DNA of 64,000 nt from an uncultured Pelagibacteraceae bacterium (GTDB taxonomy: Bacteria > Pseudomonadota > Alphaproteobacteria > Pelagibacterales > AG-422-B15): NCBI GenBank assembly GCA_902605215.1, contig CACLBX010000003.1, forward strand, positions 4,378 through 68,377. Direction: 5' to 3'. Below are positions 37,768 to 61,205 of this stretch, piece by piece. The translations under genes and the position numbers were made by a program. How positions within the stretch are numbered: position 1 is the first letter of the stretch; each line of letters opens with the position of its first letter. The notes beneath the pieces are model-generated. The model had not been told where the DNA came from. It worked only from the letters and a program-made list of their open reading frames with translations, and made no database searches.

Positions 37768-38856
37768 TTAGTAATCCAATGCTCGACAGTCTTGTGAAGA
37801 CCATCCCAAATTTAATTTGTCACCCAGATTAAGCTTAGAATTACTGCTCGCGTTTGGAACTTTTAAAATAAAATCATCGTTACCCAGCAAATTTACACGT
37901 ACTCTTGTGTGATCTCCGTGGTAAATAATTTCTTTGATTTCAGCTTCAAATCGATTTTCAATTTGCTCAGTTGGATTAATATTTACCCTTTCAGGTCTGA
38001 GAGAAATTCTTGATTTTTCACCAGTAGAAGATACTGCTATTGGGTTAGCTATTATTATCTCACCAGTACTAGTCTCAACTTTTGCAGAACCAGAAGCTAG
38101 TTCTTTTACAGTTCCAGTAAAAGTATTGTTTTCGCCAATAAAGCCAGCAACAAAAGAATTAACAGGTGTTTCATATAGTTCATTTGGACCAGAAAGCTGT
38201 TGAACCTTACCGTCATTAAAGACAGCAATTCTGTTTGACATTGTTAATGCTTCACCTTGATCATGGGTGACATATACGACCGTAACACCTAGTGTTTCAT
38301 GAATATGTTTTAATTCGTATTGCATACTCTCTCGCAAGTTTTTGTCTAACGCACCTAAAGGTTCATCCATTAAAACTAATTTAGGATCAAATACTAATGC
38401 TCTTGCAACAGCAACGCGTTGCTGTTGACCACCAGATAGTTGTGCAGGCATTCTGTTTTCAAAGCCTGTTAGTGAAACCATTTTTAAGGTCTTATTTATA
38501 CGTTCTTCAATTTCTGCCTTATCAATTTTTCTAACTTTTAATGGAAAAGCTAAATTTTCAAATACTGATAGGTGAGGAAAAAGTGCGTAGTTTTGAAAAA
38601 CCATGCCAATGCCTCTTTTGTGAGGAGGTATATTATTGATTGGATTTCCATCAAAATAGATCTCTCCATTAGTAGGCGTCTCAAAGCCTGCAAGCATCAT
38701 TAATGTAGTTGTTTTACCTGAACCTGAAGGCCCTAATAAAGTTAAAAACTCCCCTTCAGCAATATCAAGGTCTAGACCTTTTACGACCAGTTCTTTACCA
38801 TCGTAACTTTTGTCAACTTGTTCAAATTTAACGAAATCTGACTTTTCTCCACTCAT
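37768..38856 (-). CDS. ABC transporter ATP-binding protein (PotA-like, with C-terminal TOBE-like domain)
   Basis: Walker A GPSGSGKTT, signature LSGGQQQRVAVARAL, Walker B LVLMDEPLGALD, H-loop VTHDQ. Confidence 0.93.
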   Translation of the reverse strand: MSGEKSDFVKFEQVDKSYDGKELVVKGLDLDIAEGEFLTLLGPSGSGKTTTLMMLAGFETPTNGEIYFDGNPINNIPPHKRGIGMVFQNYALFPHLSVFENLAFPLKVRKIDKAEIEERINKTLKMVSLTGFENRMPAQLSGGQQQRVAVARALVFDPKLVLMDEPLGALDKNLRESMQYELKHIHETLGVTVVYVTHDQGEALTMSNRIAVFNDGKVQQLSGPNELYETPVNSFVAGFIGENNTFTGTVKELASGSAKVETSTGEIIIANPIAVSSTGEKSRISLRPERVNINPTEQIENRFEAEIKEIIYHGDHTRVRVNLLGNDDFILKVPNASSNSKLNLGDKLNLGWSSQDCRALDY

Positions 38857-41023: not shown

Positions 41024-41027
41024 GGAA

Positions 41028-43657: not shown

Positions 43658-43865
43658 ATAATTCTAATTCGTTGATCATTGTGTCTACTCATATACTATG
43701 AAAGCGTTGAGAGGGAAACAATGCTAAGAAAATCAATTTTTGAGCTATTCTAATGATTTTTTGACGAAACTGCGACAATTTTGGCCCTAATTCTTATACT
43801 GAAGTTCTTTCTTTCTTTTTTTAAGATATTATATTTAAGCTGATACTAATTTTAATAGCTACATT

Positions 43866-44465
43866 ATGTACACACCCATTAACCAATATATCGAAAGACT
43901 GGAGAATATCTCCTTTAATGTTGATGAACTTAATAAAGCTGTATCAGACCTCATAAAGATCAGACCTTTTGAAAATGATAACTTAAAAAATGGTATGCTA
44001 AAATCTAATGCCATCTGCTTAAACTATGATGAGAAAGAACTTGATGAGTGGTTTGGTGGAAATATAAGAGGCAAATACTGGACGAAGCCTGACTCTTCTT
44101 TTGAGGAAATGGAGCGCGAACCATATATTGACGAGACGAGATATACATTATTTAACCCAAAGTTAGACAATACCTACTTTAAATTTGTTTATGAAAAAAT
44201 TAATGAGTACTTCGAAGTTGGAAGGTGCAGAGTAATCAAAATGCCTCCAAGAACTACACTAAGCTGGCATCGTGATCCTGAGAAACGCATACACGTTGCG
44301 ATTAAAACAAATTATGGAGCTAGGATGTTTATTGAGCATACAGGTCATCATATTCCTGCTGATGGAAATATTTATCTAACCGACAATACTAAGTACCACA
44401 CAGCAATCAATGGTGGTGAGGAAGATCGAATTCATCTAGTCGCAACTGTGTTGGGCACAAAATAG
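43866..44465 (+). CDS. Cupin-fold, aspartyl/asparaginyl beta-hydroxylase-like 2OG/Fe(II) oxygenase (putative)
   Basis: 199 aa. LSWHRDPEKRIHVAIKTN .. KYHTAINGGEEDRIHLV gives an HxD...H arrangement as in the Asp/Asn beta-hydroxylase family. Confidence 0.5.
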   Translation: MYTPINQYIERLENISFNVDELNKAVSDLIKIRPFENDNLKNGMLKSNAICLNYDEKELDEWFGGNIRGKYWTKPDSSFEEMEREPYIDETRYTLFNPKLDNTYFKFVYEKINEYFEVGRCRVIKMPPRTTLSWHRDPEKRIHVAIKTNYGARMFIEHTGHHIPADGNIYLTDNTKYHTAINGGEEDRIHLVATVLGTK

Positions 44466-44467
44466 TT

Positions 44468-45882: not shown

Positions 45883-46947
45883 ATGGATCCACACTTAGTA
45901 GCAAAAAAAAACAAAGTTATTGATCTCATTAACAATCTAGAAGATGGCAACTTTGCATTGTTGCTCTTAATTCATATCTCTCGGTATCAAAATTTATTTT
46001 TGCATACAGAACCTGATTGGGAAAACAGCCCAAATAATTGGATAACCAAAGACAGACGACTCCAAGATGAGTCTATCGGAGTTCTTTCGTTCATCATTTT
46101 ATATTCTCTCACCAATGCGCATGTGGATGAAAATCTTTTTCCTGAATATAGAAAGCAAATTAAGGCAATGAAAATTGAAGATTTCTTGGATAATAATTTT
46201 TTTATTTCTCCATTCACAAATTTTATTGGAAAAAAAATATCTCTGAAAGTTCTTGAGTCATTTTTTTCTATTCCCCGAGAAAATATAAGACGATATATAA
46301 AGTCGTTGATAGAGGCTGGGTTTATTAGTAAAAACAAAAAGTATGGTTACCTTGTAAACATGGAGGCGTATGTTCAATACATATTTACAGACTCTCTTAG
46401 TAAAATTATGAAGTCACTCATGAGAACATTCGATGATATTATCGTTAATCTTGAAGAAAAGTATCAACTAAAATTAAATTTAAAACCAATCTCAGTTATA
46501 AATTTAGAAAAGACAAAACCCGATGTATGGAATCGAATTAGATTGCCCATGTATCACTTTTGGGTAAGAGTTCTAACACTAGAAGGCAATGATCACCTTT
46601 TAAGCCCCAATGATCGAGTTGTCTTATCTGCATCGATCTATTTTAGGAAACGTAAAGGAATATTAAATTTCACTAAAATTTCTGAGCTTTACGAAAATGA
46701 TTATCTCTTACCAACAAATATTTCATCAATTGCAGAGGCATCTAAAATGCCACGAGAAACTGTGAGGAGGTGTAGTAATAAATTAATAAAGATGAGACAT
46801 TTTGAAAAAAAAGGACGTCAACTGTATAGAATTAATTACGCTCATAAAGATGGAGAAATAGAAAATTTTATCAAGAATAAGAAAGTTACAACTCGCGATA
46901 TGATGAATTTTTATTTTAGAATTTACGATGATTTAGTTCAGATTTAA
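45883..46947 (+). CDS. Hypothetical protein with two winged-helix-like segments (possible regulator)
   Basis: 354 aa. IPRENIRRYIKSLIEAGFISK and ASKMPRETVRRCSNKLIKMRHFEKKGR look like recognition helices of MarR/Rrf2-like wHTH domains. Confidence 0.45.
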   Translation: MDPHLVAKKNKVIDLINNLEDGNFALLLLIHISRYQNLFLHTEPDWENSPNNWITKDRRLQDESIGVLSFIILYSLTNAHVDENLFPEYRKQIKAMKIEDFLDNNFFISPFTNFIGKKISLKVLESFFSIPRENIRRYIKSLIEAGFISKNKKYGYLVNMEAYVQYIFTDSLSKIMKSLMRTFDDIIVNLEEKYQLKLNLKPISVINLEKTKPDVWNRIRLPMYHFWVRVLTLEGNDHLLSPNDRVVLSASIYFRKRKGILNFTKISELYENDYLLPTNISSIAEASKMPRETVRRCSNKLIKMRHFEKKGRQLYRINYAHKDGEIENFIKNKKVTTRDMMNFYFRIYDDLVQI

Positions 46948-49721
46948 ATTGAGCACATTAAAATAATTTCTTCATTACAGACTAACTCAGCTTCAACAAT
47001 GGAACTATTTTGAGCACTTAATTGTGTATCAAGGGCTTCAAGCATAGATTTTGCTTCATTCATTGGTACTGGGCCTACAATAATGGAATAGTCATTTTTA
47101 TCTAATTTATCGACATTAATATCATATTTGAGAAATCTACTGTCAAATCCCATTACATCGTAAATATAATTCATAAAACTGAATGCAGAATTGCCACGTG
47201 TATACGATCCAATTTTTATATAAACATATTCAGCGTCACTGGTATCAATTGTTAATTCAGTTTCTTCAATATCGCTTGCTTGGGCACTAAATGCATTTGA
47301 TACAACTTCTGTAGGTTCTTCGATGAGTTGAGCGAGATCTTCTAATGCTTGGGTTGCTTCTTCAGCTAATTTATTTTCTAATTCAGTTGTGTTGTTGAGT
47401 TCTGTAAGTAAATCTCTCGCAGCATTGGCTTCCTCAACAAGGCTATTTTCATCAACAGCATTTAAAATTTTCTTTTTTGGTAAAACGCTAACCAATTCTA
47501 ATGTTTCTTCAGTATTATCAATTGTAGTTTCATCATTCGGCAATAGAGATGTATCTACCTGGTTCTCAATTGCATCAACCTCTGGAATCGCTTCTTCATC
47601 ACTATCGATTGCAGCTTCGTCGAGTATGTTTTGGGCTTTTTTAAGAGTACTATCAACAGAGTCTAACAAGTCATTCAGGCTATCTGCATCATTAATAATC
47701 ATTTCATTGGACACAGCATATTCATCCAAATCAATTTTTGGTTCATCAACAACTTCAGTAACTTCCGAAACTTCTTCATTAGTTTCCATGATTTCCTCAA
47801 CGGTCTCAATGCCTTGTTCTATGCTAATCTTATCCTCTTCAACTTGATTGAAACCTAACTGAATAAGTTCTTCTCTTGCGTTTTTACTTTCTTGGGCAAG
47901 GAATTCACCCTCATCCAAAAATTGAAGTGTGAAGTTATCCTCAACAGATACCAGTGCATTTGCAACAGAAACTTTTAATTTTATTCCAGATACGTCACTA
48001 GGAGGATTGCCCACAAATGACAAATCAGAAGTTAAAAAAGCAAGCCATCTTGGTAAAGCAGTTCCATCCTCTTGTGATGCTTCAAAACGCAGCTTGCCTG
48101 GTCCACTGATATTGAACGTATTGTCAGAAATTTGGAATTTATTACTGGTTTGTTGCGTATTGATTGGATCATTTATAATTAGAAGCATCGGATCCTGGTC
48201 ACTAATAGGAACATTTACCGCTGCTTGATAAACTTCTCCCCATTCAGAAAGATTAGTTTCAATATTTTTGCTCACATCCTCAATCGATAAATTCTGATGG
48301 TTTTCAGGCAGAATATCTTTTCCAAGTGATGCGTAAATTTGTCCAATACTGTGCTGCATTTCAGAGAAGGCTAAATCGCGTCGAAGTTCGGCAACCAATA
48401 AACTTGCTTCTTCCCGAATAACTTCAAGTTCGCCGAAGCGCGAGACTTTTTGTGCATTTTGTACTTGCTTACTGATCCTTTGAGCCACATCCAGGTATCT
48501 CTGCGCAGTATCATATTCTTCTATTGCTAAGGCATAATTCATATTTGAAAGATGGACTTGAGACAAAACTGTCATAGCAATAGCTAGATGACGTTCTGCA
48601 ATTAAATCTTTACTGGCTTTAGAAGATTTTTTTACAGCCCCTAATGAAAACACGTTAAAAAGGTTAGCTCCAATAGATGCGCCGTATTCTGTTGAGTCTT
48701 GGTTCAACAAATATTGATTGCTTGAATAACCGTAAGTCGCATTAAATTTTATACTTGGAATCAGCCCTAAAATAGCGGCTCTAGTATCCTTGCCAGTAAT
48801 CCTTTTTTGATAGCGACTTTCCATTAACTCAGGTCTTGAAACAAGTGCGATTTCTTCCATCTTTTCAATGTTCATATTTATATTAGTGAGGTAAGCATCA
48901 TCTCTTGACAGGCTAAACTTTTGACCAGGCAGTAATCCCATGAGTATCGCAAGTTCATTTTTGGAATTTATTAATGCTCGTTGTTGAGTTTGCAGCGTTC
49001 TTTGAACATCAAGTAATTCTTTTTGATAAAGTAATGAATCCATAGGTGCAGATATGAGAAGTTCTTCAATATACTTCGAGTCTGCAAGAGCTGTTTCAAC
49101 TCTCTCAAGAAGTGGATTTAATTTTTTTAAAAGATTTTCTGACGCCTGTGCTTTCCAGTAAGCGCGAATGATATCACGAGTAATGTTTTGTGTTGCTTTT
49201 CTCTCAAGTTCTTTAGCAATTAGATAACGATCCGCTTGTTGACCTGCTCGAATGTAGGACAAGCCAAAATCAAGAGCGTTCCATGTGAACTCAATATTTC
49301 TAGTTCTTAGACCTCTATCACGAGAAACAGTATAAGACTCAGTTCCATCAAGATCTGATGGTGGCTCACTATCATTTTCAACTGTAATACTCGTTGATGG
49401 CTGTAATTCATTAAATTCAGAGTAACCCGCATTGAGGGCAATATCTGGAAGCATATCAAAACGTTGAAGATCACTTTGCCTCTGCGCCAATGCAGACTCC
49501 ATTACGCTGATACGTAAGTCACGGTTGTTTTTAATGGCAATAGCAATTGCTGTATGGAGGTCTATGTTTTCTAGAGGAGCCTCAACTGTGAGCGACGATA
49601 AATCTTTTTGAATACTTATACTTAACTTTTCTGCGTCGATAACATTGGGTGTCCGAGCGCAGGCGCTAAGTGCAATCAATAGGAAGAGAGCTATTATTTT
49701 TGTAGTAATTTTTCTCATCAA
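46944..49721 (-). CDS. TolC/OEP-family outer-membrane lipoprotein fused to an Ig-like (dystroglycan/cadherin-type) domain, a long acidic linker and a SPOR-like C-terminal domain
   Basis: Lipobox LIALSAC (Cys21). About 430 aa of two-fold OEP-type helix/strand repeats. ALPRWLAFLTSDLSFVGNPP..IKLKVSV segment near 47930-48150. D/E-rich region 47236-47930. C-terminal YVYIKIGSY..YSIIVGPVPMNEAKSMLEAL. Confidence 0.8.
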   Translation of the reverse strand: MMRKITTKIIALFLLIALSACARTPNVIDAEKLSISIQKDLSSLTVEAPLENIDLHTAIAIAIKNNRDLRISVMESALAQRQSDLQRFDMLPDIALNAGYSEFNELQPSTSITVENDSEPPSDLDGTESYTVSRDRGLRTRNIEFTWNALDFGLSYIRAGQQADRYLIAKELERKATQNITRDIIRAYWKAQASENLLKKLNPLLERVETALADSKYIEELLISAPMDSLLYQKELLDVQRTLQTQQRALINSKNELAILMGLLPGQKFSLSRDDAYLTNINMNIEKMEEIALVSRPELMESRYQKRITGKDTRAAILGLIPSIKFNATYGYSSNQYLLNQDSTEYGASIGANLFNVFSLGAVKKSSKASKDLIAERHLAIAMTVLSQVHLSNMNYALAIEEYDTAQRYLDVAQRISKQVQNAQKVSRFGELEVIREEASLLVAELRRDLAFSEMQHSIGQIYASLGKDILPENHQNLSIEDVSKNIETNLSEWGEVYQAAVNVPISDQDPMLLIINDPINTQQTSNKFQISDNTFNISGPGKLRFEASQEDGTALPRWLAFLTSDLSFVGNPPSDVSGIKLKVSVANALVSVEDNFTLQFLDEGEFLAQESKNAREELIQLGFNQVEEDKISIEQGIETVEEIMETNEEVSEVTEVVDEPKIDLDEYAVSNEMIINDADSLNDLLDSVDSTLKKAQNILDEAAIDSDEEAIPEVDAIENQVDTSLLPNDETTIDNTEETLELVSVLPKKKILNAVDENSLVEEANAARDLLTELNNTTELENKLAEEATQALEDLAQLIEEPTEVVSNAFSAQASDIEETELTIDTSDAEYVYIKIGSYTRGNSAFSFMNYIYDVMGFDSRFLKYDINVDKLDKNDYSIIVGPVPMNEAKSMLEALDTQLSAQNSSIVEAELVCNEEIILMCSI

Positions 49722-49902
49722 TCTAGGATTTCTGTTTTGTCACAGATTCAATATGGAATTATAGACAAATGGGGTAAAACCAAAAAAATAATATACCCAA
49801 TATGAGTTGTTTAGGCTTATGTGAGTACCTTTCCAACTTTAGTGATGTATAAATAAAGTGCCGAAACCCAATATTTACATTGGCTAGAGAACATATAATT
49901 AA

Positions 49903-52900
49903 ATGAGCAATAAACTTATTCAGGCTTTGGAACCCCGTCTCATGCTGGACGGTGCAGCAGTAGCAACGGCAATTGATGCGGTTGATGATTTAGCTCAGTT
50001 TCAAAAATCCGAGAGTGATAAGTCATTTAAAGCAGATCACTTCAAAGTTGATAAAGATACGAAACTCCCTTTCGTAAATGTAGACGCATCAGCTCAAAAT
50101 GCAAAATCAAGACAGATTGTATTTATCGATAGCACAGTAGAAGATATTGAAACGCTGATTAATAGTTTTGATAAAAATACTGAGGTGCATGTCATACAAA
50201 GTGATCAAGACGGATTTGTTACCATGCAAAATATTTTATCATCTCAAGAAAATATAGATGCGGTTCACGTCATTGGTCACGGTAGTGTTGGACAGATTGC
50301 ATTCGGTACAGCTGTATTAAACAGCGATACATTAAATGCTTATGAAAATATTCTTCAAGAGATTGGAACAAGTCTTTCAGTAAATGGAGATATTTTATTT
50401 TATGGTTGCAACGTAGCCGCAGATCAAAGTGGTGAGATCTTAATCAAACAAATTGCAGACATCACGGATGCTGATGTAGCGGCATCAGATGATATTACTG
50501 GTAAAGGCGGTGATTGGGACTTAGAGAAACATACAGGCATTATTGAAACTGAAAATGTTTCAGTTGTAGGTTACCAATATGCTCTAAGTAATGGCGTAAC
50601 AGCAACCCAAAATGCTGTTGAATTACATACTTCAGGTATGAATTTCATGGCAGGCGGCGGAACCTATAAAAATAACACTGGAGGTCAAACAGACTCAGGT
50701 GGAACCAGATACATCGTCACGCTTGAAAGAGGGAATGTAACAACTGGAGATACTTTAGATTTTGATTACGATGTAGCTTCAGCAACTCACGACCCTGATA
50801 CTCAAGGTGCTGTTAATGTTTATATGGTCTTCCTAAATGACTATGTAAACAGAAGAGCCGAAGATGATAGAGGTATTATAACTTTTGATAATGAAATTCT
50901 TGGTATTTTTACCACCCCAGAGAACACGATAGCAAAATCTGGATATGACATGAGTGATGGTATCTATCCTCTAACAACCAATTCGAAAAAAGTGCAGATG
51001 AGGGATTTAGAGTATCTGGATCCTCCTGCTACTCCTCCTGGTACTATGGGTAGCCAAGATGCCTTTACTGTAACAGGATCCAATAAAGTTTTAACCATGG
51101 CTACAGACAATGGACTAAAAGGAGACTTTGTCAGGGTGGTTACCAGAGTAGCTTCTGATCCCGTAGTGGGCAATAATGATTCTGGTTATATTAATGAAAA
51201 CTTAACATTAGGTGTCTCTAATGGCGCAAGCGCAAATGATAGCACACCAGATACATCAGGAGAACACACAGGTGATGTTTTGCTTAATGACACTGGTGGT
51301 GATGGATCTGATTTAATTGTGAGTGCAATAAATGGAGGGTCCCTCGGATCGCCAGTTGATGGCACTTATGGTCAATTAACACTCTTTTCAAATGGTTCAT
51401 ACAGTTACTCAGCTAATAAAGATGCTGCGAATGAATTAGATGCAAGTGATACAGAAACTGATACCTTTACTTATACGGTTTCTGATGGAAGCGATACTGC
51501 TACTGCAACAATCACAATTACTGTTGCAGGTGTGAATGATGCGCCCGTTGGAGCAGCTGATACAGGCTACATCAAAGAAGATGGAACGTTGTCTGTATCT
51601 AATGGTGGCTCTGCTGTTACAGGAACAGATAGCAACAATAATAATGAAAGTGGTGATACTACGGGTGATGTTTTGCTCAATGATACTGACCCAGATGCGA
51701 GTGCAAGCTTAGTAGTATCAGCAGTGCAAGGACAGGCTAGTAATGTTGATTCAAATGTTACAGGCACTTACGGTACATTAAATTTAGATGCAAATGGCTC
51801 ATATACCTATATAGCCAATCAAAGTGCTGCAGACGGACTCGCTGCTGGAGCAACGGCAACAGACACATTTTCTTATACTGTTAGTGACGGCACTGCAACA
51901 AGCACAGTAAATTTGGTCATCACGGTTATAGGGGTAGGGCCTGAAGCGGTCGCTGATACAGCTTCAGTTAATGAAAATGTTTTGCTTAATGCCAACAATG
52001 CATCGTCTACCGGTTTACTGGCTAATGATGACGACAATGCTGCTTATGATAGTGAGAGCTTAGCTGTTACGAACGTTAGTTCTAACTCTACAGGAAACAG
52101 TGGTAGTGCTACACAGGGAGTTCTCGGTACGTATGGTACGCTCACTGTGGCAGCTGATGGTACTTATACATATACGCCAAATACAGCAGCAGCTGAAGCA
52201 TTGGATGCAAATGACACTGAAACAGATGTCTTCACTTACACAGTAAAAGATGATGATGATAAAAATTCAAGTACTGCAACGCTTACAATCACAGTAACAG
52301 GTGTTGACGACAACCCGGTTGCTGTCAGTGATACAGGTTATATCAATGAGGATGGAACACTGGCTGTAGCAGATGGTGGCTCTGCTGTTACAGGAACAGA
52401 TAGCAACAATAATAATGAAAGCGGTGATACCACAGGCGATGTTTTACTCAATGACACTGACGCAGATGCGAGTGCAACTCTTGTTGTTTCTGCAATACAA
52501 GGTGGATCTTTAGGATCAGGTGTGAATGGAACCTATGGTACCCTCACTTTATATTCAACCGGTAGATATACATATGTTGCAGATAAGAGTGGCGCGGATG
52601 GACTTGCAGCAGATGCAGTTCAAACTGATGTCTTTACATATACTGTAAGTGATGGAGCTGGCGATACGAGTAACGCTACTCTTACAATTACAGTAAAGGG
52701 TATTGGTCCCCAAGGCGTAGCGGACACAGCGTCTGTAGCTGAAAATGCAACGGTAACCAACAACAATGCTGCCACAAACGGAGTGCTCGCAAACGATGAT
52801 GATAACGCATCATTTGACCAAGAAAGTCTTGCTGTAACGGCAATAACAGGTGCATCAGCAGGAACAGTTGATGGTGACACAACAGGAACTCATGGAACAC

Positions 52901-55900
52901 TTTCAATGAATGAAGATGGTACTTATTCTTATGCGGCGACTAATGATGCTCTTGATCCTAATGAGCAAGTTACAGATATATTTACTTACACTGTAAAAGA
53001 CGATGCGAATAAAAATGCAAGTACTGCGACATTAACAATAACAGTAACTGGAGCAAATGACCCAATTACTGCTGTTGCTGACACGGATGCTGTAAATGCT
53101 GGATCTACAATTTCTCGAAGTGAAACTGATACAGAAGAACTTGATCATGACGATACTGACCCTGATGGTGATGATGTATCAGGCAGCTTTACTATTACTA
53201 ATATCAGACATGGTTCTGATGATTATAACCCTGGTCAAGAAATTACGACATCAAAAGGTAGATTAACAGTCGATGCAAATGGTTCTTATACTTATGTAGC
53301 TGATCAAAGCGGTTCAACAGGCTTAGGAAACGGTGTTCAAGCAACTGATGTCTTCACTTATACAGTAAGAGATCACAGTGGAGGTGATACAGACACCGCA
53401 ACACTTACGATCACAATTACAGGAACTAACAATACAGCACCAGTTGCCAATACCGATGCAGGTTATATTCTGGAGGATGGTCGTCTTGAAGTAACAGATG
53501 GTGCGACGGCAAATGATGCTACTCCGGATGCAACAGGAGAACATACAGGGGATGTCTTATTAGATGATACTGATGCAAACAGTGACACACTTACTGTTTC
53601 AGCAATATCAGGAGGATCAGTGGGCTCTAATGCAAATGGGACTTACGGAACATTAGTAATTCAAAGTAATGGTAGCTATGTCTATACAGCGGATAAGACT
53701 GCAGCAGATGCATTGGATGCTGATGATGTGGTTACTGATCAATTTATCTATACAATTAGTGATGGCAATGGAGGAACTGCGACTTCAACACTTACCTTCA
53801 CCGTAAAAGGGATTGATGATGATCCTGTTGGTGTAGCCGATACAGGAGCAGTTGATGAAGACGCTCAACTTCAAGTAAATGCTGTAAGTGGAGTATTATC
53901 AAATGATACTGATGCTGATGCGAGTTCAAGTCTGTCCGTGACCACAGTTAGTTCCAATAACACAAGTCAAAGTGGAAGTGCTGGTTCAGAAATTACAGGC
54001 GAATTCGGGTCCCTCACACTAGATTCAGATGGAAAATATACATACACAGCCAATACTGCAGCTGCTGATAATTTAGCCCATAATGCAACGGCCACTGACG
54101 TGTTTACCTATACCGTCAGCGATGGCGCTGGAACGACCAGCAATACTACTCTTACAATTACAGTTACAGGGAAAGGCCCTGTTGGTTCTGCTGATTCTGC
54201 TGCAGTAAATGAAAATGTGTTACTCAGCAAGGATGAAGCAAGTGGTGTTCTAACAAATGATACTGGTGGAGATCAAGAAAGTCTTGCAGTTACTAATATT
54301 TCCTCAAATGATACCAGCGCAACAGGTACTGCTGGTCAGGGAGTGTTAGGAACCTACGGGACTTTAACTATGGCTGCAGATGGAAGTTATACATATACGC
54401 CTAATACAGCCGCCGCAGAGGCTCTAGATGGTGGTGACTCGGTTTCAGAAAAGTTTACCTATACAGTAAAAGATGATGAGGATAAAAATTCTTCAACCGC
54501 TGAACTTACAATTAATATTACAGGTGTTAATGATGCCATCGTTGCAGTTGATGATACGGATGCTGTTGATGAGGATGGTAGAGTAGACAGGTTAATTAGT
54601 GATGATCAAGAACTTGATCATGACGATACAGATGTGGATACGGATGATGTAAGCGGAAGTCTCACGATTACTGATATAAGAACAGGTCCTAAAGATGGAA
54701 CCGGAACTGATGGCACGGTAGGTGTGGCGCTAACAGGAGAATATGGAACACTGACAGTGAATGATGATGGATCATACACTTATATCGCTGATCAAGATAA
54801 ATCAGATCAACTTCCCACAGGTCAAACAGGAACAGATACATTTACCTACACTGTGAGTGATGGTACTGAAACTTCGACCGCACAACTGACTTTCAAAGTC
54901 ACTGGTATCAATGATAACGATCCAGTTGCTGTAGACGACACTGATACTGTAAATAGAGATGCATCCATAGATAGAACAAATGGATCTACATTTGATCTAG
55001 CTATTGATGATACAGATGCAGACTCGGATACATTAACCATTACTGAAATAAGAAAAGGCAACACTAAAGGTGGAGGTGATGCTGGAACTATAGGACAACC
55101 ACTAGTTGGTGAATACGGAACATTAACGTTACAAGCAGACGGCAGTTATAAATATGCTGCTGATCAAGACTCGATCAATAACCTTGGTCGTGGACAAAGT
55201 GTAATTGAGTATTTTAATTATACCGTATCTGATGGCTCAAGAACTACAACAGGACTACTTTCAATTACTGTAAATGGTATTAGTGATCCGCCTGTTCCAG
55301 TGGATGATACACTAGACATTGACGCTGGTGCACAAACAGAAAAAGGTGCAAATCAAGGGGTATTGATAAATGATACTGACCCTGATGGAGATCCTTTATC
55401 CGTGGAAAGCATTAGAACTGGTCAAGAAAATAAAACGGGGACATCAGGTACCATTGGAACAGCCTTACCAGGAACATATGGCGATTTAACTATGAATTCT
55501 GACGGAAGCTACATCTATCAAGCTAACAATGCAAAAGCACTAAATCCTGGTGAAACTGCTACAGAATACTTTACTTATACAGCAACCGACGGTGAGTCCT
55601 CAGTAGAAGCTCAAATTGCTATTACCGTGACAGGTCAAAATGATCCACCTGTAGCTTTATACCCTGTTCGAGATCCAAATGTAGTTACAGGTGAAAAATT
55701 TATTATCAGGCACAAACAAATTTTTGATGATCCAGACACAGGTATTTATGACATCGCAGAATACAAAATTATTGATCCTGAAGATGGTACAGAAGTAAGT
55801 CTTCCTGATGGACTAAGACTAAAACAAAATAAAATTCATGGATCCATTAGTACACCTGGGACATACAGTATTACAATCAGAGCAATTGATGGAGCAGGCC

Positions 55901-57027
55901 TCTATGCTGATCATACTTTTACAATCACAGTTAAGCCTGCATCAGGGTATATCGCTGAAAAGGATACTATTGATGAAGAAGCATCATCTACTTATGAAAC
56001 GGTTGTGATCAAACCAAAGAAAGATTATTTATCTGCAATTAAAGAAACAGTTAATGAGGGGTCCTTAGGTATCACTGATGAAGGCTTTACGTTGGATACA
56101 GTATCAATCGCTGATACCGCATCTCTTTCAAAACCTCTAAAATTCAATGGCGGTTTGCGATTGATGGATGCCGTTGCAAATGAAGTATCAGGCAATGAAG
56201 AGTCTGATTTATCAGTTGGTGTTAAATTGAATGATGATAATCAGAAAAATGTTGAACTGTATTCAGGAAAACTCTCTGACGGGAAAGCCTTACCCGAGTG
56301 GATACAAGTCAATCCTGAAACAGGCGAAACAACAGCCAATATGCCTGAAGGTGTGCAAGAAGTTGAAGTACAGCTTGTTGCCTTGGACAAAGACGGTAAC
56401 ACAAGAGATATCAACATTGTTCTGGATAAAGCAAAAATTAAAAACGACCAAGAATTTACTCGAGGTAACGTTGGTCAAACACAGGTTGTGGTTGATAATG
56501 ATGCCAATGTAAATCTAATTCGTAAAAGTGATGGCAAGACTGATCAAGTAGCATCAAACAATTTAAATGCTGAAACGGACTTCCTAGGCACCATGAAGCT
56601 TAGCGATGTCCAAATGGATGCGGGCAAATATACTCTGGATATGATCGATGACAATCAATCAAATGTAAAAATGTATAAAGCCGAGATGAAAGATGGGGGC
56701 TCTTTACCTGAATGGATTACTATTGATTCAGATACAGGATCAATCTCGCTAGACCCATCAATAGCTCGAACAGGTTCTGCAGCCTCAGTATTTTTAACGG
56801 ACAGTCTTCAAGTGCTTGAGTTTAAAATTATTGCTGAGGATGAAGATGGCAAAGAGAGAATAATCGAAGTTGAAATTAATCTTGATGAAATCGCTACGCC
56901 ATCTGAAACTGAAGAGCAAGCTGAGGAAACTGATGAAGTTTCGTTTATTCCTCTTGATGAACAACTTAAGGTACAGTCTCAGAAAATAGATAATTATGGC
57001 GAAAAAATTATTAGTCTTGTAAGCTAA
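49903..57027 (+). CDS. Giant (2374 aa) surface adhesin-like protein: N-terminal LEPRLMLDGAA motif + DUF4347, 12 VCBS/cadherin-like repeats, C-terminal Ig-like (He_PIG/dystroglycan-type) domains
   Basis: No hydrophobic signal peptide. DUF4347-like block QIVFIDSTVED..VHVIGHGSVGQIAFG..ILFYGCNVA (about 50110-50550). Twelve units ending (F/Y)TYTVSDG/KDD...ATLTITVTG(V/I)(N/D)D. SLPDGL..GSISTPGTYSITIRAIDGAG and two LPEWI..D..TG domains at the C-terminus. Confidence 0.9.
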   Translation: MSNKLIQALEPRLMLDGAAVATAIDAVDDLAQFQKSESDKSFKADHFKVDKDTKLPFVNVDASAQNAKSRQIVFIDSTVEDIETLINSFDKNTEVHVIQSDQDGFVTMQNILSSQENIDAVHVIGHGSVGQIAFGTAVLNSDTLNAYENILQEIGTSLSVNGDILFYGCNVAADQSGEILIKQIADITDADVAASDDITGKGGDWDLEKHTGIIETENVSVVGYQYALSNGVTATQNAVELHTSGMNFMAGGGTYKNNTGGQTDSGGTRYIVTLERGNVTTGDTLDFDYDVASATHDPDTQGAVNVYMVFLNDYVNRRAEDDRGIITFDNEILGIFTTPENTIAKSGYDMSDGIYPLTTNSKKVQMRDLEYLDPPATPPGTMGSQDAFTVTGSNKVLTMATDNGLKGDFVRVVTRVASDPVVGNNDSGYINENLTLGVSNGASANDSTPDTSGEHTGDVLLNDTGGDGSDLIVSAINGGSLGSPVDGTYGQLTLFSNGSYSYSANKDAANELDASDTETDTFTYTVSDGSDTATATITITVAGVNDAPVGAADTGYIKEDGTLSVSNGGSAVTGTDSNNNNESGDTTGDVLLNDTDPDASASLVVSAVQGQASNVDSNVTGTYGTLNLDANGSYTYIANQSAADGLAAGATATDTFSYTVSDGTATSTVNLVITVIGVGPEAVADTASVNENVLLNANNASSTGLLANDDDNAAYDSESLAVTNVSSNSTGNSGSATQGVLGTYGTLTVAADGTYTYTPNTAAAEALDANDTETDVFTYTVKDDDDKNSSTATLTITVTGVDDNPVAVSDTGYINEDGTLAVADGGSAVTGTDSNNNNESGDTTGDVLLNDTDADASATLVVSAIQGGSLGSGVNGTYGTLTLYSTGRYTYVADKSGADGLAADAVQTDVFTYTVSDGAGDTSNATLTITVKGIGPQGVADTASVAENATVTNNNAATNGVLANDDDNASFDQESLAVTAITGASAGTVDGDTTGTHGTLSMNEDGTYSYAATNDALDPNEQVTDIFTYTVKDDANKNASTATLTITVTGANDPITAVADTDAVNAGSTISRSETDTEELDHDDTDPDGDDVSGSFTITNIRHGSDDYNPGQEITTSKGRLTVDANGSYTYVADQSGSTGLGNGVQATDVFTYTVRDHSGGDTDTATLTITITGTNNTAPVANTDAGYILEDGRLEVTDGATANDATPDATGEHTGDVLLDDTDANSDTLTVSAISGGSVGSNANGTYGTLVIQSNGSYVYTADKTAADALDADDVVTDQFIYTISDGNGGTATSTLTFTVKGIDDDPVGVADTGAVDEDAQLQVNAVSGVLSNDTDADASSSLSVTTVSSNNTSQSGSAGSEITGEFGSLTLDSDGKYTYTANTAAADNLAHNATATDVFTYTVSDGAGTTSNTTLTITVTGKGPVGSADSAAVNENVLLSKDEASGVLTNDTGGDQESLAVTNISSNDTSATGTAGQGVLGTYGTLTMAADGSYTYTPNTAAAEALDGGDSVSEKFTYTVKDDEDKNSSTAELTINITGVNDAIVAVDDTDAVDEDGRVDRLISDDQELDHDDTDVDTDDVSGSLTITDIRTGPKDGTGTDGTVGVALTGEYGTLTVNDDGSYTYIADQDKSDQLPTGQTGTDTFTYTVSDGTETSTAQLTFKVTGINDNDPVAVDDTDTVNRDASIDRTNGSTFDLAIDDTDADSDTLTITEIRKGNTKGGGDAGTIGQPLVGEYGTLTLQADGSYKYAADQDSINNLGRGQSVIEYFNYTVSDGSRTTTGLLSITVNGISDPPVPVDDTLDIDAGAQTEKGANQGVLINDTDPDGDPLSVESIRTGQENKTGTSGTIGTALPGTYGDLTMNSDGSYIYQANNAKALNPGETATEYFTYTATDGESSVEAQIAITVTGQNDPPVALYPVRDPNVVTGEKFIIRHKQIFDDPDTGIYDIAEYKIIDPEDGTEVSLPDGLRLKQNKIHGSISTPGTYSITIRAIDGAGLYADHTFTITVKPASGYIAEKDTIDEEASSTYETVVIKPKKDYLSAIKETVNEGSLGITDEGFTLDTVSIADTASLSKPLKFNGGLRLMDAVANEVSGNEESDLSVGVKLNDDNQKNVELYSGKLSDGKALPEWIQVNPETGETTANMPEGVQEVEVQLVALDKDGNTRDINIVLDKAKIKNDQEFTRGNVGQTQVVVDNDANVNLIRKSDGKTDQVASNNLNAETDFLGTMKLSDVQMDAGKYTLDMIDDNQSNVKMYKAEMKDGGSLPEWITIDSDTGSISLDPSIARTGSAASVFLTDSLQVLEFKIIAEDEDGKERIIEVEINLDEIATPSETEEQAEETDEVSFIPLDEQLKVQSQKIDNYGEKIISLVS
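51150..55650 (+). repeat. Tandem array of about 12 coding repeats (about 100-130 codons each) inside the adhesin gene, with an about 257-codon higher-order period
   Basis: Recurrent FTYTV(S/K)D(G/D) .. TLTITVTG.(N/D)D unit boundaries. A 47-nt tract at 51604-51650 is identical to 52375-52421 (offset 771 nt). Confidence 0.85.
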
Positions 57028-57039
57028 TTCTGTAAATAA

Positions 57040-57759
57040 ATGAATAAAGTTAAAACATCGTTAGCAGCGTTTTGCTTTCTTTTTATATCTTTTGGGGCAC
57101 TAGCTGAAGAAAGAACAACACGTATTTTAGTTACTGCAACTGAAGAGGCGACTTTATCAAGTGAAATTTCAGCAAAAATAATTTCTATTCCTGTAAAAGC
57201 AGGAAATAACTTTAGTAAATCAGATATTTTAATTGAATTTGACTGTTCCTTTTTTGAAGCTCAAAAAGATGTCGTACAAGCAGAACTAGATAGTGCCAGA
57301 GTAACTCTAAAAAGTAACCAAGAGCTTGCTGCGATGAGATCTATTGGAGAGTACGAAGTTCAACTATCTCGAATAGCAGTTGATCGAGCACAATCAGAAT
57401 TAAATATTGCAGAACTCAACACTGATCGTTGTATTATTCAAGCGCCCTATGACGGAGTCATGTCCAAAGTCTTTGTAAATGAGTACGAAAGTATTGAAAG
57501 GCAACAGCCATTGATTGAAATTATTGGTTCAGGCACATTAGAGGCAAAACTTATGATATCAAGTAAATGGCTATCATGGTTATCTGAAGGATATCCTCTA
57601 AGTATAGTTATTGATGAGAATGGCTTAGAGTATAGTGCACAAATACATTCTTTAGGTGCAGATATAGATCCGGTAAGTCAGACGATTGATGCTACCGCAC
57701 AATTTGATAAAAATTATGAGACATTACTTCCAGGAATGAGTGGGACAGCAACGTTTTGA
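57040..57759 (+). CDS. Short periplasmic HlyD/MFP-type adaptor (secreted, 239 aa)
   Basis: Signal peptide ..FISFGALA/EE. Barrel-sandwich segments ISAKIISIPVKAGNNFSKSDILIEF and IIQAPYDGVMSKVFVNEYE flank a short coiled coil. Confidence 0.75.
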   Translation: MNKVKTSLAAFCFLFISFGALAEERTTRILVTATEEATLSSEISAKIISIPVKAGNNFSKSDILIEFDCSFFEAQKDVVQAELDSARVTLKSNQELAAMRSIGEYEVQLSRIAVDRAQSELNIAELNTDRCIIQAPYDGVMSKVFVNEYESIERQQPLIEIIGSGTLEAKLMISSKWLSWLSEGYPLSIVIDENGLEYSAQIHSLGADIDPVSQTIDATAQFDKNYETLLPGMSGTATF

Positions 57760-59099
57760 ATGATAATTCTTCAATAAAAATTGCACGACTAATTACACTT
57801 GAAAAAAAGTTTCGTAACGCTGAAAGTGAAACAGAACTTGGTTTTATTTGTGCTAACGAATTACGGAGTATAGTTGACTATAATTTCTTATTTATTCTCA
57901 ACAGATCAAGCATAAACCGACTTAAAGTGAATACTATTTCTGATTTATCAGTCATTGATAGAACAGCTCCAACCGTTACCTTTATTGAGGGATTGCTCAA
58001 TAAGAAAGGAATGATCAAAAGTGATGAAGTATCTGCAATTAGTCTTCAAAGCCTTGATTTAGATAAAGTAAATCTAAATATCCCTGAAAATTTTCCAAAT
58101 CATTTAGTCTTTGTTCCTTTGTCTTCACGAATAGAAAAAAATATTGGTTACTTAGTTCTTGTAAGAACAGAACCAGTTACAAGTTCAGAAAAAGATTTAT
58201 TATTACACATCTCTGAAAGCTTTAGCCATGCGCTCACTGCTTTTGGCTCAAAAAAAACGGTTTTAACAAGTATCAGTCGTATATTTACAGGGTGGGTAAA
58301 GTGGCTAGTGATTGCATCCATAACTGTGGTGATGTTCTTTCCTATTAGCATGTCAGCTTTGGCGCCTGTAGAGGTGGTTGCAAAAGATCCAACTATAGTT
58401 ACATCACCTGTGAACGGTGTTGTTGAAAAAGTTTTAATTAAGACCAACGAAAATGTAAAACCAGGTACAGAACTAGTTAAACTGGACGATTTAAATTTTA
58501 AAAATCAGTATGAAATTGCACTTCAGAAACTTGAAGTAGCTGAAGCCGAGCTGTTAAGAGTTAAGCAGTCATCATTTTCAAATGAAGATGATAAAGCACG
58601 CCTGGTTGAACTTTCAACTGAAGTAGGTTTAAGGAAAAAAGAAGCCACCTACGCAGAAGAACAATTGAAATACTCAATCATTTCTGCTGAGCGAGAGGGT
58701 ATAGCGGTGGTTGAAGACTTTACTGATTGGCAAGGGAGACCTGTTACCATTGGCGAAAAAATATTAACTATAGCTGATCCTCAACGCATTGAATTTCAAA
58801 TCTTTTTACCCACTAAAGATTCTCTTTTGATTAAAAAAGAAGCCAGAGTAAAAGTGTTTTTAGATAGTGACCCTCTTAATTCTCTTGAAGGAGAAGTCTT
58901 GCGTACTTCTTATAAGCCTGCTCTTACGGCTGAGAATATTTTAGCATATCAGATTTTTGCAAAATTAGATGAAAACCAAGGAGAAGTTCCAAGAATAGGT
59001 TTACGAGGTACAGCAAAAATTTACGGAGAAAAAACAAGTATTTTTTACTACATATTCCGTGTTCCTATAAATCTTACGAGACAATTTTTAGGTTTTTAG
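57756..59099 (+). CDS. HlyD-family adaptor with an about 170-aa cytoplasmic N-terminal domain and a single TM
   Basis: TM WLVIASITVVMFFPISMSAL, then IVTSPVNGVVEKVLIKTNENVKPGTELVKLDD, a coiled coil, and IISAEREGIAVV. 4-nt overlap upstream and no gap downstream. Confidence 0.75.
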   Translation: MNDNSSIKIARLITLEKKFRNAESETELGFICANELRSIVDYNFLFILNRSSINRLKVNTISDLSVIDRTAPTVTFIEGLLNKKGMIKSDEVSAISLQSLDLDKVNLNIPENFPNHLVFVPLSSRIEKNIGYLVLVRTEPVTSSEKDLLLHISESFSHALTAFGSKKTVLTSISRIFTGWVKWLVIASITVVMFFPISMSALAPVEVVAKDPTIVTSPVNGVVEKVLIKTNENVKPGTELVKLDDLNFKNQYEIALQKLEVAEAELLRVKQSSFSNEDDKARLVELSTEVGLRKKEATYAEEQLKYSIISAEREGIAVVEDFTDWQGRPVTIGEKILTIADPQRIEFQIFLPTKDSLLIKKEARVKVFLDSDPLNSLEGEVLRTSYKPALTAENILAYQIFAKLDENQGEVPRIGLRGTAKIYGEKTSIFYYIFRVPINLTRQFLGF

Positions 59100-61205
59100 A
59101 TGACTGTTCCATACTTAAGACAAGATTTGAAATTGAGTGAGGGTCCCAAAAAAGAGGATGGCTCTTCATCGTGGCTGCTTTATGACTCTTTAAGAAATAA
59201 ATATTTTTCGATCAATAAAAATGCTTTTGATCTCTTAAACAACTGGTCAAGTGGATCTCAATTAGATGATTTCATTAAAAAAATTAATGAAGTTAACTTA
59301 TTAGTAAGTGAAGAAGAAATAAATGAATTTATCAATTTTCTAGATCAAAATAATTTGACGATCAAAAAGACCAGTGAAGAAGTAAAGTCTTTAGTGGTTC
59401 AAAAAAACAAAACGAACAAACATTGGCTACTTAAACTCATTCATAACTATCTATTTTTCAAAATACCTTTAGTAAGACCTGGGACTTGGCTTCAAACAAG
59501 TTTACCCATTGCCTTGTTCTTGAGCTCATTAACAGTCAGACGCATAATTTATGGTTTTGGAATAATTGGAATATTTCTGACAATAACTAATTATGAGAAA
59601 TTTCTCTCAACCTTTTCATATTTCTACAATATTAATGGTCTGATCTTATTTGGAATTACAATTGTTTTTGTAAAGGCTTTACATGAGTTGGGTCATGCGT
59701 ACGTAGCTACATACTATAAGTGTAAAGTTTCATCAATTGGCTTAGCCATGTTGGTTTTCTTTCCATTCTTATATACGGATACATCCGATGCCTGGAAACT
59801 CACTGATCACAGAAAACGTTTACTAATAAATTTTGCAGGCATGTTAACTGAACTACACCTAGCCTTGATTGCTACATTTGCATGGGCTGTATTTCCTGAG
59901 GGCATCATGAAAAGTGCAGCATTTTTTATTGCAACATCAAGCTGGATCTCATCATTGTTAATAAATATAAGTCCCTTTATGCGGTTTGATGGCTATTATG
60001 TTCTCTCTGATTTTCTTAAAGCTGAAAATTTGCAACTGCGTTCATTTGCTTTAGGTCGATGGCAGATAAGAGAGTGGCTCTTTGGTTTTAAATTTCAGCC
60101 ACCTGAACAGTTGATCGCTAACAGAAGGTGGACTTTTATAATTTATGCATGGGCTACGTGGATTTATCGTTTCTTCATTTTTATTGGTATTGCATTATTG
60201 GTTTATTATTTAACATTTAAAATATTAGGGATTATTTTATTTGTAATAGAAATTGTATGGTTCATTTTATTGCCGATTGCTAGAGAAGTTATTCAATGGT
60301 GGAAGCTTAGAAAGTCGATGAAATTCAATAGATCTTCTATGAGGTCTATCGTCTTGTTCACAGCATTTATGATTGCCATGCTTGTTCCATGGCGTACATC
60401 TCTAAGTTTGCCAGCTGTTATTGAAGAAGGTGTTGTTCTTGATATTTTTGCATCGGAGGACTCAAAGATAAGAAAAGTTAATGTTTTGCATAATCAGTAT
60501 GTAGCTGAGGGAGACTTGCTAGTTGTTATGACTAGTCCTTTGATCTCTAATAAAGTTGAAAAAGCAATAGATCGTGTAAAAATGATACAGCAAAAACTTG
60601 ATCGTAGAGTGGGATCAAAGCTTGATCTTAGTAATCTATTAATACTAGAGAATGAGTTACAAAAAGAGATTGAAATTCTGAATTCATTGAAAGAAGAAAA
60701 TAAAGCTTTATCAATTTATGCACCATCAGATGGCATAATAAAAGATTTGATAAGTCTCAGCGCTAATCAATGGGTAAATAAAAAAGATAAGCTATTTTCA
60801 ATTGTTCAGTCAGAAGAGGTACAAGTGATAGCTTTTGTTAGCGAGACGGATCTTGATAAAATAAAAAAAGTTTCAAGCGGTTATTTTTATGCAAAAAATA
60901 ATGAATTTGCGAAAGTCAAAGTCGAATTAGTATCATCAAATGAAACTTCAACCGAAGAGTTGCCGTATTTAGCTTTGACCTCAACTTATGGAGGCACAAT
61001 TGCATCAAGAGAAATACTTGGAAAGAAAAAAGTTCAGAGACCTGAAAATGCTCTTTATCAACTAAATTTCACTTCTTCAGAGAGTCTAAAAGATTTACAG
61101 TGGCAGACAGCTGGATCTGTTAAAATAGATTCAGAAAATTATAATATTTTTCAAAATATATTTAACGCCACGACTTCAATACTCATTCAGGAAAGTGGGT
61201 TCTAG
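59100..61205 (+). CDS. Tri-domain protein: PqqD/RRE-like N-domain + site-2 protease (peptidase M50) membrane core + HlyD-like periplasmic C-domain
   Basis: HELGH at 59682-59696. NISPFMRFDG (NxxPxxxxDG) at 59964-59993. Several TM helices. C-terminal LDIFASEDSKIRKVNVLHNQYVAEGDLLVV, a coiled coil, then IYAPSDGIIKDL. N-terminal WLLYDSLRNKYFSINKNAFDLLNNW..EEINEFINFLDQNNL. Confidence 0.8.
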   Translation: MTVPYLRQDLKLSEGPKKEDGSSSWLLYDSLRNKYFSINKNAFDLLNNWSSGSQLDDFIKKINEVNLLVSEEEINEFINFLDQNNLTIKKTSEEVKSLVVQKNKTNKHWLLKLIHNYLFFKIPLVRPGTWLQTSLPIALFLSSLTVRRIIYGFGIIGIFLTITNYEKFLSTFSYFYNINGLILFGITIVFVKALHELGHAYVATYYKCKVSSIGLAMLVFFPFLYTDTSDAWKLTDHRKRLLINFAGMLTELHLALIATFAWAVFPEGIMKSAAFFIATSSWISSLLINISPFMRFDGYYVLSDFLKAENLQLRSFALGRWQIREWLFGFKFQPPEQLIANRRWTFIIYAWATWIYRFFIFIGIALLVYYLTFKILGIILFVIEIVWFILLPIAREVIQWWKLRKSMKFNRSSMRSIVLFTAFMIAMLVPWRTSLSLPAVIEEGVVLDIFASEDSKIRKVNVLHNQYVAEGDLLVVMTSPLISNKVEKAIDRVKMIQQKLDRRVGSKLDLSNLLILENELQKEIEILNSLKEENKALSIYAPSDGIIKDLISLSANQWVNKKDKLFSIVQSEEVQVIAFVSETDLDKIKKVSSGYFYAKNNEFAKVKVELVSSNETSTEELPYLALTSTYGGTIASREILGKKKVQRPENALYQLNFTSSESLKDLQWQTAGSVKIDSENYNIFQNIFNATTSILIQESGF

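Follow-up and report, generated by a model that had tools for sequence, protein, structure and literature searches.

Within the 64,000-nucleotide window analyzed here, a stretch of contig CACLBX010000003.1 from an uncultured Pelagibacteraceae bacterium with a G+C content of ~34%, five adjacent genes between positions 46944 and 61205 bring together a giant adhesin, a TolC-family channel protein, two HlyD-type adaptors and a 701-residue protein in which a predicted leader-binding domain, an M50 intramembrane protease and a third HlyD-type adaptor are fused. In its construction the apparatus resembles type I secretion systems or tripartite efflux assemblies, but it comes without an ATP-binding cassette (ABC), resistance-nodulation-division (RND) or major facilitator superfamily (MFS) pump. 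With moderate confidence, we take it to be a dedicated, leader-guided and TolC-linked processing or export apparatus for the giant protein. What links the fusion to the adhesin is probably a conserved leader at the adhesin N-terminus, read by the N-terminal domain of the fusion, which is modeled as a recognition element (RRE) of the kind that serves ribosomally synthesized and post-translationally modified peptides (RiPPs). The system is known here from its genes, from sequence comparison and from structure models.

The six-frame open reading frame (ORF) list places the five genes exactly where an earlier reading made by a model from the letters alone (the sequence-only reading) had put them. 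They encode a TolC-family (OEP) lipoprotein of 925 aa with a C-terminal periplasmic extension (46944..49721, minus strand), the giant substrate protein or adhesin of 2374 aa (49903..57027, plus strand), a soluble periplasmic HlyD-type adaptor of 239 aa (57040..57759, plus), an inner-membrane adaptor of 447 aa (57756..59099, plus) and the RRE-M50-HlyD fusion of 701 aa (59100..61205, plus). The channel gene and the adhesin operon are separated by a divergent intergenic region of 181 nt (49722..49902), after which the plus-strand genes follow each other with a 12-nt gap, a 4-nt overlap and 0 nt, the spacings that had been claimed. We read the five genes as an operon plus a divergent outer-membrane gene. 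A sequence scan of the divergent region gave promoter-like and terminator matches not above shuffled expectation.

Concerning the missing pump, profile searches find no ABC, RND or MFS protein in the locus and neither Walker A nor LSGGQ occurs in it, hence profile and motif scans agree with the earlier statement that no such transporter lies between 46.9 and 61.2 kb. Over the whole 64-kb window the Walker A and LSGGQ pair is present in one ORF, 37768..38856 on the minus strand, which matches ABC_tran and TOBE_2, adjoins a solute-binding protein gene and is an importer-type ABC ATPase; a type-I-secretion ABC query returned nothing beyond this ORF in the window. Measured against the canonical type I secretion system (T1SS), the locus thus holds a HlyD-family membrane fusion protein (MFP) and a TolC-family factor, and lacks the dedicated ABC transporter.

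The adhesin begins with MSNKLIQALEPRLMLDGAAVATAID, in which the leader spans aa 5-25, LIQALEPRLMLDGAAVATAID (49915..49977, plus), with the core LEPRLMLDGA (aa 9-18) at 49927-49956. The NCBIfam model LEPR-XLL (NF012209) scores 16.3 bits on it vs a cut-off of 17 bits, and the adhesin is the sole match of the LEPR leader motif in the window. Across 33 giant proteins from several phyla positions L9, E10, R12 and D16 never vary and F15 and A18 hardly do, which gives the consensus xLEPRxxFDGA. The motif is present in 36 of the 38 neighboring DUF4347 giants in the related loci, and also in two giants with no detected DUF4347 (L058 and L082). Between leader and DUF4347, these 33 giants carry a variable, often acidic linker of ~30 to more than 60 residues.

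Directly behind the leader stands DUF4347 (PF14252; aa 72-218, 50116..50556, plus), matched by Pfam at 2e-48 and 164.7 bits vs a threshold of 24.6. Its HG and YGC motifs are nearly invariant and contain a putative His126/Cys169 dyad (codons 50278-50280 and 50407-50409, plus), spaced by 43 residues and conserved in related giants. Cys169 is the only cysteine in the 2374 residues, and related giants hold 0-3 Cys. The DUF4347 profile weakly matches PDB entry 9qpe_G (E 5.7e-4); according to its authors, this solved DUF4347 protein, Tce1 (PA0256, 9qpe chain G), can be superposed on the TcdB cysteine protease domain and also aligns with the MARTX protease, including a His/Cys dyad (PMC13323088). By analogy, the DUF4347 of the adhesin is a putative self-processing, C80-like cysteine protease. 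Like C80-type domains (MARTX, large clostridial toxins, Tce1) it has a His...Cys dyad, here ~43 residues apart; it differs from them in being located in the N-terminal region of an adhesin, right behind a leader of the secretion type. A protein search with the N-terminal 230 aa retrieved only short fragments named 'DUF4347 domain-containing protein'.

The bulk of the adhesin consists of ~12 VCBS/bacterial cadherin-like repeats (51160..55602, plus), matched by Cadherin_4 (2.1e-119, 11 stretches), Big_9 and TIGR01965 VCBS (1.1e-130, 12 stretches), and He_PIG-type 'LPEWI' domains are common to its C-terminal part and to the channel protein. Its net charge is -274 and the 2374 residues contain one GGxGxD match, so RTX repeats are absent. 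No hydrophobic segment at all was found, and with it no Sec signal, in line with what had been claimed for this protein. Related giants are similar, with net charges of -5 to -16 per 100 residues and almost no RTX nonapeptides. At the other end, a conserved C-terminal tail (aa 2348-2374, FIPLDEQLKVQSQKIDNYGEKIISLVS, 'PLDEQL...NYGEKIISLVS'; 56944..57024, plus) carries a motif that recurs in related giants: its core, [STPAG][LF]xx[QK][LFV], is placed 24-40 residues ahead of the C-terminus in 20 of 38 giants, drawn from many taxa (loci L008-L085), vs 0.13% of interior 50-aa windows. The tail could be a second signal or an anchor.

The fusion divides into an RRE part (59100-59429), a membrane domain (59481-60389) and a HlyD part (60390-61202), all on the plus strand. 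Peptidase_M50 (PF02163) matches with 36.7 bits vs a cut-off of 27.2, and both M50 motifs are intact, namely the zinc-binding and catalytic HELGH at aa 195 (59682..59696, plus) and NISPFMRFDG at aa 289 (59964..59993, plus), the second motif, with the third zinc ligand. Residue conservation was derived from 26 diverse homologues of 31-43% identity, all of which match both Peptidase_M50 and HlyD_3. Residues H195, E196, H199, N289, D297 and G298 are invariant in them, as are five charged residues in predicted membrane helices, R240, E251, R357, E384 and E396; E384 sits mid-way in the most hydrophobic helix of the M50 domain. These invariant membrane charges may form a proton or ion relay. Residues 23-390 match the daptide_HExxH model NF041824 (4e-36) with 125 bits vs an equivalog cut-off of 300; the RRE-M50 part is therefore homologous to the daptide leader peptidase but falls outside that family. 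Compared with RiPP leader peptidases (daptide NF041824; YydH-type), the RRE and M50 parts are homologous, with HExxH and NxxPxxxxDG intact, whereas here a HlyD adaptor is fused on, the neighbors are TolC and adaptor genes instead of modification enzymes, and the leader is carried by a giant protein.

A model of residues 1-112, built with the 26 diverse sequences, reached a pLDDT of 87.9 and shows three strands followed by three helices (b-b-b-a-a-a). In a Foldseek search of this model ranks 1-10 are all RiPP recognition elements (probability 0.8-1.0), the top matches being TbiB1 with its leader peptide, the RRE of the sactipeptide enzyme CteB, lasso B1 with leader, TglI and PqqD (probability 0.96-1.0), and the target-normalized TM-score against stand-alone RREs is 0.5-0.65. 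On the strength of this model, the N-terminal domain folds as an RRE, and leader binding is predicted for it. Searching the PDB by sequence and by profile, with the fusion and with its N-terminus as queries, gave nothing significant. The sequence-only reading had called OEP, HlyD, Peptidase_M50, DUF4347 and VCBS domains, all of which were matched, and a PqqD-like N-terminus of the fusion, which drew no Pfam match but did draw weak NCBIfam matches and the confident structure model. As for the remainder of the fusion, the C-terminal 270 residues of a full-length model match MacA, EmrA and MexA (E 1e-11); the site-2 protease fold could not be confirmed structurally from that model, whose fold search returned adaptors only.

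HlyD_3 and HlyD_D23 are matched by all three adaptor-type proteins. The 239-aa adaptor (HlyD_3 1.6e-14) has a Sec-type signal peptide, hydrophobic at aa 4-22 and followed by ALA-EE, and passes the RND-type periplasmic adaptor subfamily TIGR01730 with 101.1 bits vs a cut-off of 94.9, under which the 447-aa protein (61.8) and the fusion (34.3) remain. The 447-aa adaptor (HlyD_3 3.1e-13) is built, on the plus strand, from a GAF-like domain (57756-58265), a single transmembrane helix at aa 176-202 (58281-58361) and a HlyD-type periplasmic part (58362-59096). Among the N-terminal domains of its family, 8 of 30 match Pfam GAF (best 3.4e-7) and 7 of 30 match GAF_2, and the weak PDB matches of this domain are GAF domains as well; from these profile matches, the N-terminal 170 residues are assigned as a cytoplasmic GAF-like domain.

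The channel protein matches Pfam OEP (1.2e-34) in two stretches over aa 55-~430, stays below the cut-offs of subfamilies TIGR01844 and TIGR01845, and has the lipobox LIALSAC at aa 15-21 (LSAC). The identification as a TolC-family lipoprotein is hence sound, with the correction that the protein has 925 aa and ~430 extra C-terminal residues (46944-48200), in which a He_PIG domain and a long acidic stretch are followed by an end that is tentatively SPOR-like. The Ig-like He_PIG domain (PF05345; aa 516-600, 47922..48176, minus) scores 25.7 bits vs a cut-off of 24. The end (aa ~830-925, 46947..47234, minus) aligns weakly (24% identity, E 0.019) with the PF05036 SPOR region of homologue P0240; there is no Pfam match in the window protein, and a SPOR domain is thus unconfirmed there. 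The OEP genes of most other taxa encode only ~510-580 aa.

The closest relatives of both the fusion and the channel protein come from Pelagibacteraceae single-cell genomes and Candidatus Pelagibacter, which marks the window as DNA of Pelagibacterales (SAR11). The whole locus is syntenic across SAR11 contigs, in the order winged-helix gene, channel gene, divergent giant gene and then the 239-, 447- and 701-aa genes. All over Pelagibacterales the channel protein has homologues of 65-91% identity, whose genes are in every case divergent from the giant gene, a layout also seen in loci L006-L010 and L013. The length of the giant ranges from 2274 aa up to 6339 and 9101 aa in Pelagibacter proper (L001, L002), and the three genes downstream of it hold their sizes, with 237, 444 and 700 aa. 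Beyond the module the SAR11 lineages differ, with oligopeptidase B in the window and photolyase or urease genes elsewhere.

The fusion family is far wider than SAR11. A scan of 1.84 billion representative proteins, taken as 50%-identity clusters, returned 2459 cluster representatives at E<=1e-30; the best 150 relatives are almost all full-length, of ~700 aa, and share 32-43% identity. In a forward test the NPFMRFDGY pattern, with one genome per species, gave at least 571 confirmed relatives, from which 80 loci were kept and annotated with the window proteins as queries; 38 of them have at least 9 kb on both sides and form the full-flank subset. These loci stem from Pelagibacterales, Rhodospirillales, Hyphomicrobiales (with Hyphomicrobium) and Caulobacterales, from Colwellia, Marinobacterium, Halomonas, Marinomonas, Pseudomonas, Methylococcaceae, Burkholderiales, Azonexus and Zetaproteobacteria, and further from Nitrospira (including the complete N. 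defluvii), Sulfurimonas, Desulfobacterota and the planctomycete Scalindua.

In at least 5 phyla the fusion stands with the 447-aa adaptor beside a giant acidic protein, usually together with the 239-aa adaptor and a TolC-family gene. A gene of the 447-aa type lies directly upstream of the fusion in 75 of the 80 forward loci (37/38 full-flank) and a 239-aa-type adaptor is found in 63 (32/38 full-flank), while an ORF of at least 1000 aa or a DUF4347 protein is present in 35 of the 38 full-flank loci, three having no visible giant. Outside SAR11 the genes usually run from OEP through small adaptor, GAF adaptor and fusion to the giant; a minimal form with giant, GAF adaptor and fusion also occurs, for example in Colwellia (L015). 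The reverse test started from the other partner, with 80 metagenome loci seeded with the N-terminus of the giant (leader plus DUF4347). A module gene lies within the available sequence in 53 of these 80; where the upstream flank measures at least 6 kb, the share is 28 of 38. The majority of the other loci end inside the giant gene. The predicted co-occurrence of M50-HlyD fusions with giant LEPR/DUF4347 proteins, adaptors and TolC genes is hence seen in both directions.

No motor travels with the module. An exporter-sized ABC protein occurs in one of the 38 full-flank loci (L084), no T1SS-type ABC occurs in the 38 reverse loci with at least 6 kb upstream, and in all 160 forward and reverse loci a T1SS-type ABC exporter lies within 10 kb once. 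That case, an ABC and HlyD pair 5 kb upstream of the module in Pseudomonas fluorescens (L084), was considered as a hidden motor and rejected, being part of a complete, separate OEP-ABC-HlyD operon that is missing from the sister locus L080. An ABC match in reverse locus L144 was likewise dismissed as an exporter, having two nucleotide-binding domains and no membrane domain. All-against-all clustering of the ORFs revealed no further conserved gene family in the neighborhoods, the other clusters being shadow ORFs and importer-type ABC ATPases.

Several known systems combine some of these elements. Type I secretion (HlyBD-TolC; LapBCE/LapA) has in common with the present locus the TolC-family channel, HlyD-type adaptors with an alpha-hairpin, and a huge, acidic, Cys-poor repeat cargo that lacks a Sec signal and is encoded beside its machinery. 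The locus differs in that no ABC protein is found in it or in 159 of 160 related loci, in that the cargo has an N-terminal leader besides the C-terminal tail and no RTX nonapeptides, and in having three distinct adaptors, with an RRE-M50 protease as polytopic inner-membrane partner. In the bacteriocin exporters known as peptidase-containing ABC transporters (PCATs), such as colicin V CvaAB-TolC, the inner-membrane export component has a protease fused to it that recognizes and cuts an N-terminal leader, and in Gram-negatives this component cooperates with an adaptor and TolC. The logic of leader, fused protease, adaptor and TolC is the same here; however, the PCAT protease is a cytoplasmic C39 cysteine peptidase on an ABC pump, it acts on double-glycine leaders, and its cargo is a small peptide, whereas the giants have 2000-9000 aa. 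TriABC-OpmH and other two-adaptor tripartite pumps likewise employ more than one kind of adaptor per assembly, and the best PDB sequence match of the 447-aa adaptor is a TriA-TriB fusion (6vej); TriABC, in contrast, has an RND pump and exports small molecules.

Taken together, the components suggest how the apparatus may work. By homology, the RRE would dock the leader at the cytoplasmic face of the membrane, and the M50 domain, with its motifs intact, would cut the leader off or hold it, as homology to its RiPP relatives suggests. Of the two roles that the sequence-only reading had offered for the protease, processing or release of the adhesin and a new export route, processing is favored as the best-founded step because the closest characterized RRE-M50 relatives are RiPP leader peptidases. 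The mixed adaptors (fusion, GAF adaptor and soluble adaptor) would bridge to the TolC-type channel, through which conduit the giant polypeptide would reach the surface, and the GAF domain may gate or regulate the export step. Export might proceed N-terminus first, possibly during translation; such threading, perhaps co-translational, is suggested because the signal is N-terminal on proteins of up to 9101 residues. As to what might drive it, one can speculate on the membrane potential acting on the polyanionic chain, on a proton relay via the invariant membrane Glu and Arg residues of the M50 domain, and on Ca-dependent folding outside the cell.

A more far-reaching version, to which we give tentative and less than even credence, sees here a separate secretion pathway of diderm bacteria, in which a leader-binding intramembrane protease fused to an adaptor replaces the type I ABC motor. 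The protease would then capture the LEPR leader, maybe on the nascent chain, cut it and pass up to 9000 residues N-terminus first without ATP, with E251, E384, E396 and R357 as proposed proton relay residues.

A number of results weigh against a leader-guided export apparatus. No component of the locus contains a recognizable energy-coupling module, and M50 proteases are not known as protein translocators. An OEP gene is present in 23 of the 38 full-flank loci, and the others must use an unlinked channel. The conserved C-terminal tail lies where classical type I signals lie. The case for the RRE is a structural one: Pfam PqqD has no match among the 26 fusion family members, NCBIfam PqqD-type models match weakly in 5 of 26, and the Foldseek E-values of the RRE matches are modest (0.02-0.1). 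The full-length fusion model is poor (pLDDT 65.5), with an unreliable membrane domain and N-terminus. The topology, with the RRE in the cytoplasm and the adaptor part in the periplasm, is proposed from the positive-inside rule and analogy; it agrees with stretches rich in Lys and Arg that border the membrane domain toward the RRE and occur again just ahead of the last helix. From the overall interpretation of the sequence-only reading, then, the domains, the pump-free locus and the co-occurrence stand, whereas the idea that the protease takes the place of an energized transporter is still a hypothesis, as is translocation itself.

The strongest alternative, which we hold to be rather unlikely, assumes a different division of labor: an unlinked ABC type I system would export the giant C-terminus first via its tail, and the module would serve as an anchor and release device similar to LapD/LapG. 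In those systems a giant adhesin is retained in a TolC-type channel, the retention module of LapA sitting in LapE, and its N-terminal part is the target of an inner-membrane sensor protein and a protease. Transferred to the present locus, the leader would be held by the RRE at the inner membrane, DUF4347 or the linker would sit in the adaptor/TolC conduit, and cleavage by M50, self-cleavage by DUF4347, or both would free the giant under control of the GAF sensor. The tail found 24-40 residues from the end of 20 of 38 giants fits this, as do the type-I-like cargo, which is acidic, Cys-poor and devoid of a Sec signal, and a module with no visible energy source; two proteolytic functions and a cytoplasmic sensor domain would also suit regulated release. 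The likeness to LapD/LapG is one of concept (an inner-membrane protein with a cytoplasmic sensor domain, a protease and a giant adhesin): Pfam and NCBIfam match no LapG-type (C93) or LapD-type (HAMP-GGDEF-EAL) domain in the proteins of the locus, where the protease is instead intramembrane, the sensor GAF-like, and both are fused to adaptors. Moreover, the type I ABC and MFP genes of giant adhesins normally adjoin their substrate, yet an exporter-type ABC lies near one locus in 160; an own outer-membrane channel and three adaptors would be needless for a mere release device; and the giant has no RTX repeats.

It seems to us very improbable that the module matures and exports some small peptide, be it a RiPP-like product or the leader once cleaved, and that the giant is no more than a neighbor or the source of that peptide. 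It would agree with the nearest characterized RRE-M50 relatives, which act on small ribosomal peptides, with the occurrence of RRE domains in peptide natural-product pathways and with the small molecules that TolC-adaptor assemblies commonly move. However, the leader is on the giant itself, with four positions invariant across phyla, module and giant are associated in both directions, the neighborhoods have neither conserved modifying enzymes nor a small precursor gene family, and none of the three full-flank loci that lack a visible giant offers an alternative conserved partner. A chance adjacency of a TolC/adaptor efflux operon and an adhesin gene in a variable region can be set aside almost entirely. 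Flexible regions typically show the kind of variation seen in the length of the SAR11 giant (2274 to 9101 aa), yet the same pairing is found, in differing gene orders, in at least 5 phyla. Coincidence does not explain the adjacency in the window because the gene set recurs beside giants in most of the 160 independently retrieved loci; the neighborhood analysis, which might have shown the module to be usually unlinked to large secreted proteins, as the sequence-only reading had allowed, found it linked to them.

Some lineages carry further genes at these loci. In Pseudomonas (L066, L080, L084 and others) a PPDK_N/PEP-utilizers protein of 811-859 aa precedes the module, with a GNAT acetyltransferase after it; its architecture is that of phosphotransferases of the rifampin-phosphotransferase type. 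The Pseudomonas loci also have a 281-aa sulfotransferase directly upstream of the giant, and in L084 a PAAR protein lies between module and giant. These extra genes may be lineage-specific modification genes. In a locus from a Pseudomonas metagenome-assembled genome (L060, 3-4697), a classical RTX protein with 32 GGxGxD in its visible 1565 aa stands upstream of the module and a LEPR/DUF4347 giant downstream, hence RTX and LEPR large secreted proteins can coexist at one locus.

In the window, the locus is flanked by a double winged-helix protein and oligopeptidase B; profile searches confirm both, as had been claimed. The double winged-helix protein (354 aa, 45883..46947, plus) has weak HTH matches only, and its gene is arranged tail-to-tail with the channel gene, overlapping it by 4 nt, an adjacency kept in SAR11 loci L006 and L007. 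As a query of the related loci it gave 2 matches, and it is absent from those outside SAR11; it may be a SAR11-specific regulator whose membership in the system is uncertain. Farther upstream, the block 40409-45808 encodes a glutamine-synthetase-like protein, an Asp/Arg-hydroxylase-like protein of 199 aa, an M19 dipeptidase, a 552-aa protein with no Pfam match and a DUF3726 protein. This block is conserved in SAR11, with synteny in L006 and L007, and has no relation to the giant-protein locus.

Literature searches found no description of the system or of a function for the LEPR leader and no paper on the arrangement, in accordance with the earlier statement that it has no experimentally defined function; DUF4347 appeared in that literature only in protein lists and as a type VI secretion system effector domain. 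New here are the common xLEPRxxFDGA leader, the modeled RRE fold of the fusion, the GAF-like domain, the putative His/Cys dyad of DUF4347 and the common C-terminal tail.

By the accepted rule, the giant surface proteins of Gram-negative bacteria depend on an ABC-driven type I system. This rule may have an exception, since the module, found in hundreds of species-representative genomes, pairs giants with TolC, adaptors and a predicted leader-binding intramembrane protease, and with no pump. If the module is an exporter, it would be a new way to move megadalton proteins across two membranes, and both site-2 proteases and leader recognition of the RiPP type would gain a new job; as a processing or release device, it would be a new control of surface display. 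The same module is present in culturable, genetically tractable Pseudomonas, Halomonas and Marinomonas. SAR11 are the most abundant bacteria of the ocean, and the giant is the largest gene of their genomes, whose product probably shapes the cell surface that phages and grazers meet. A motor-less pathway, if true, would run in SAR11, Nitrospira, Pseudomonas and many others.

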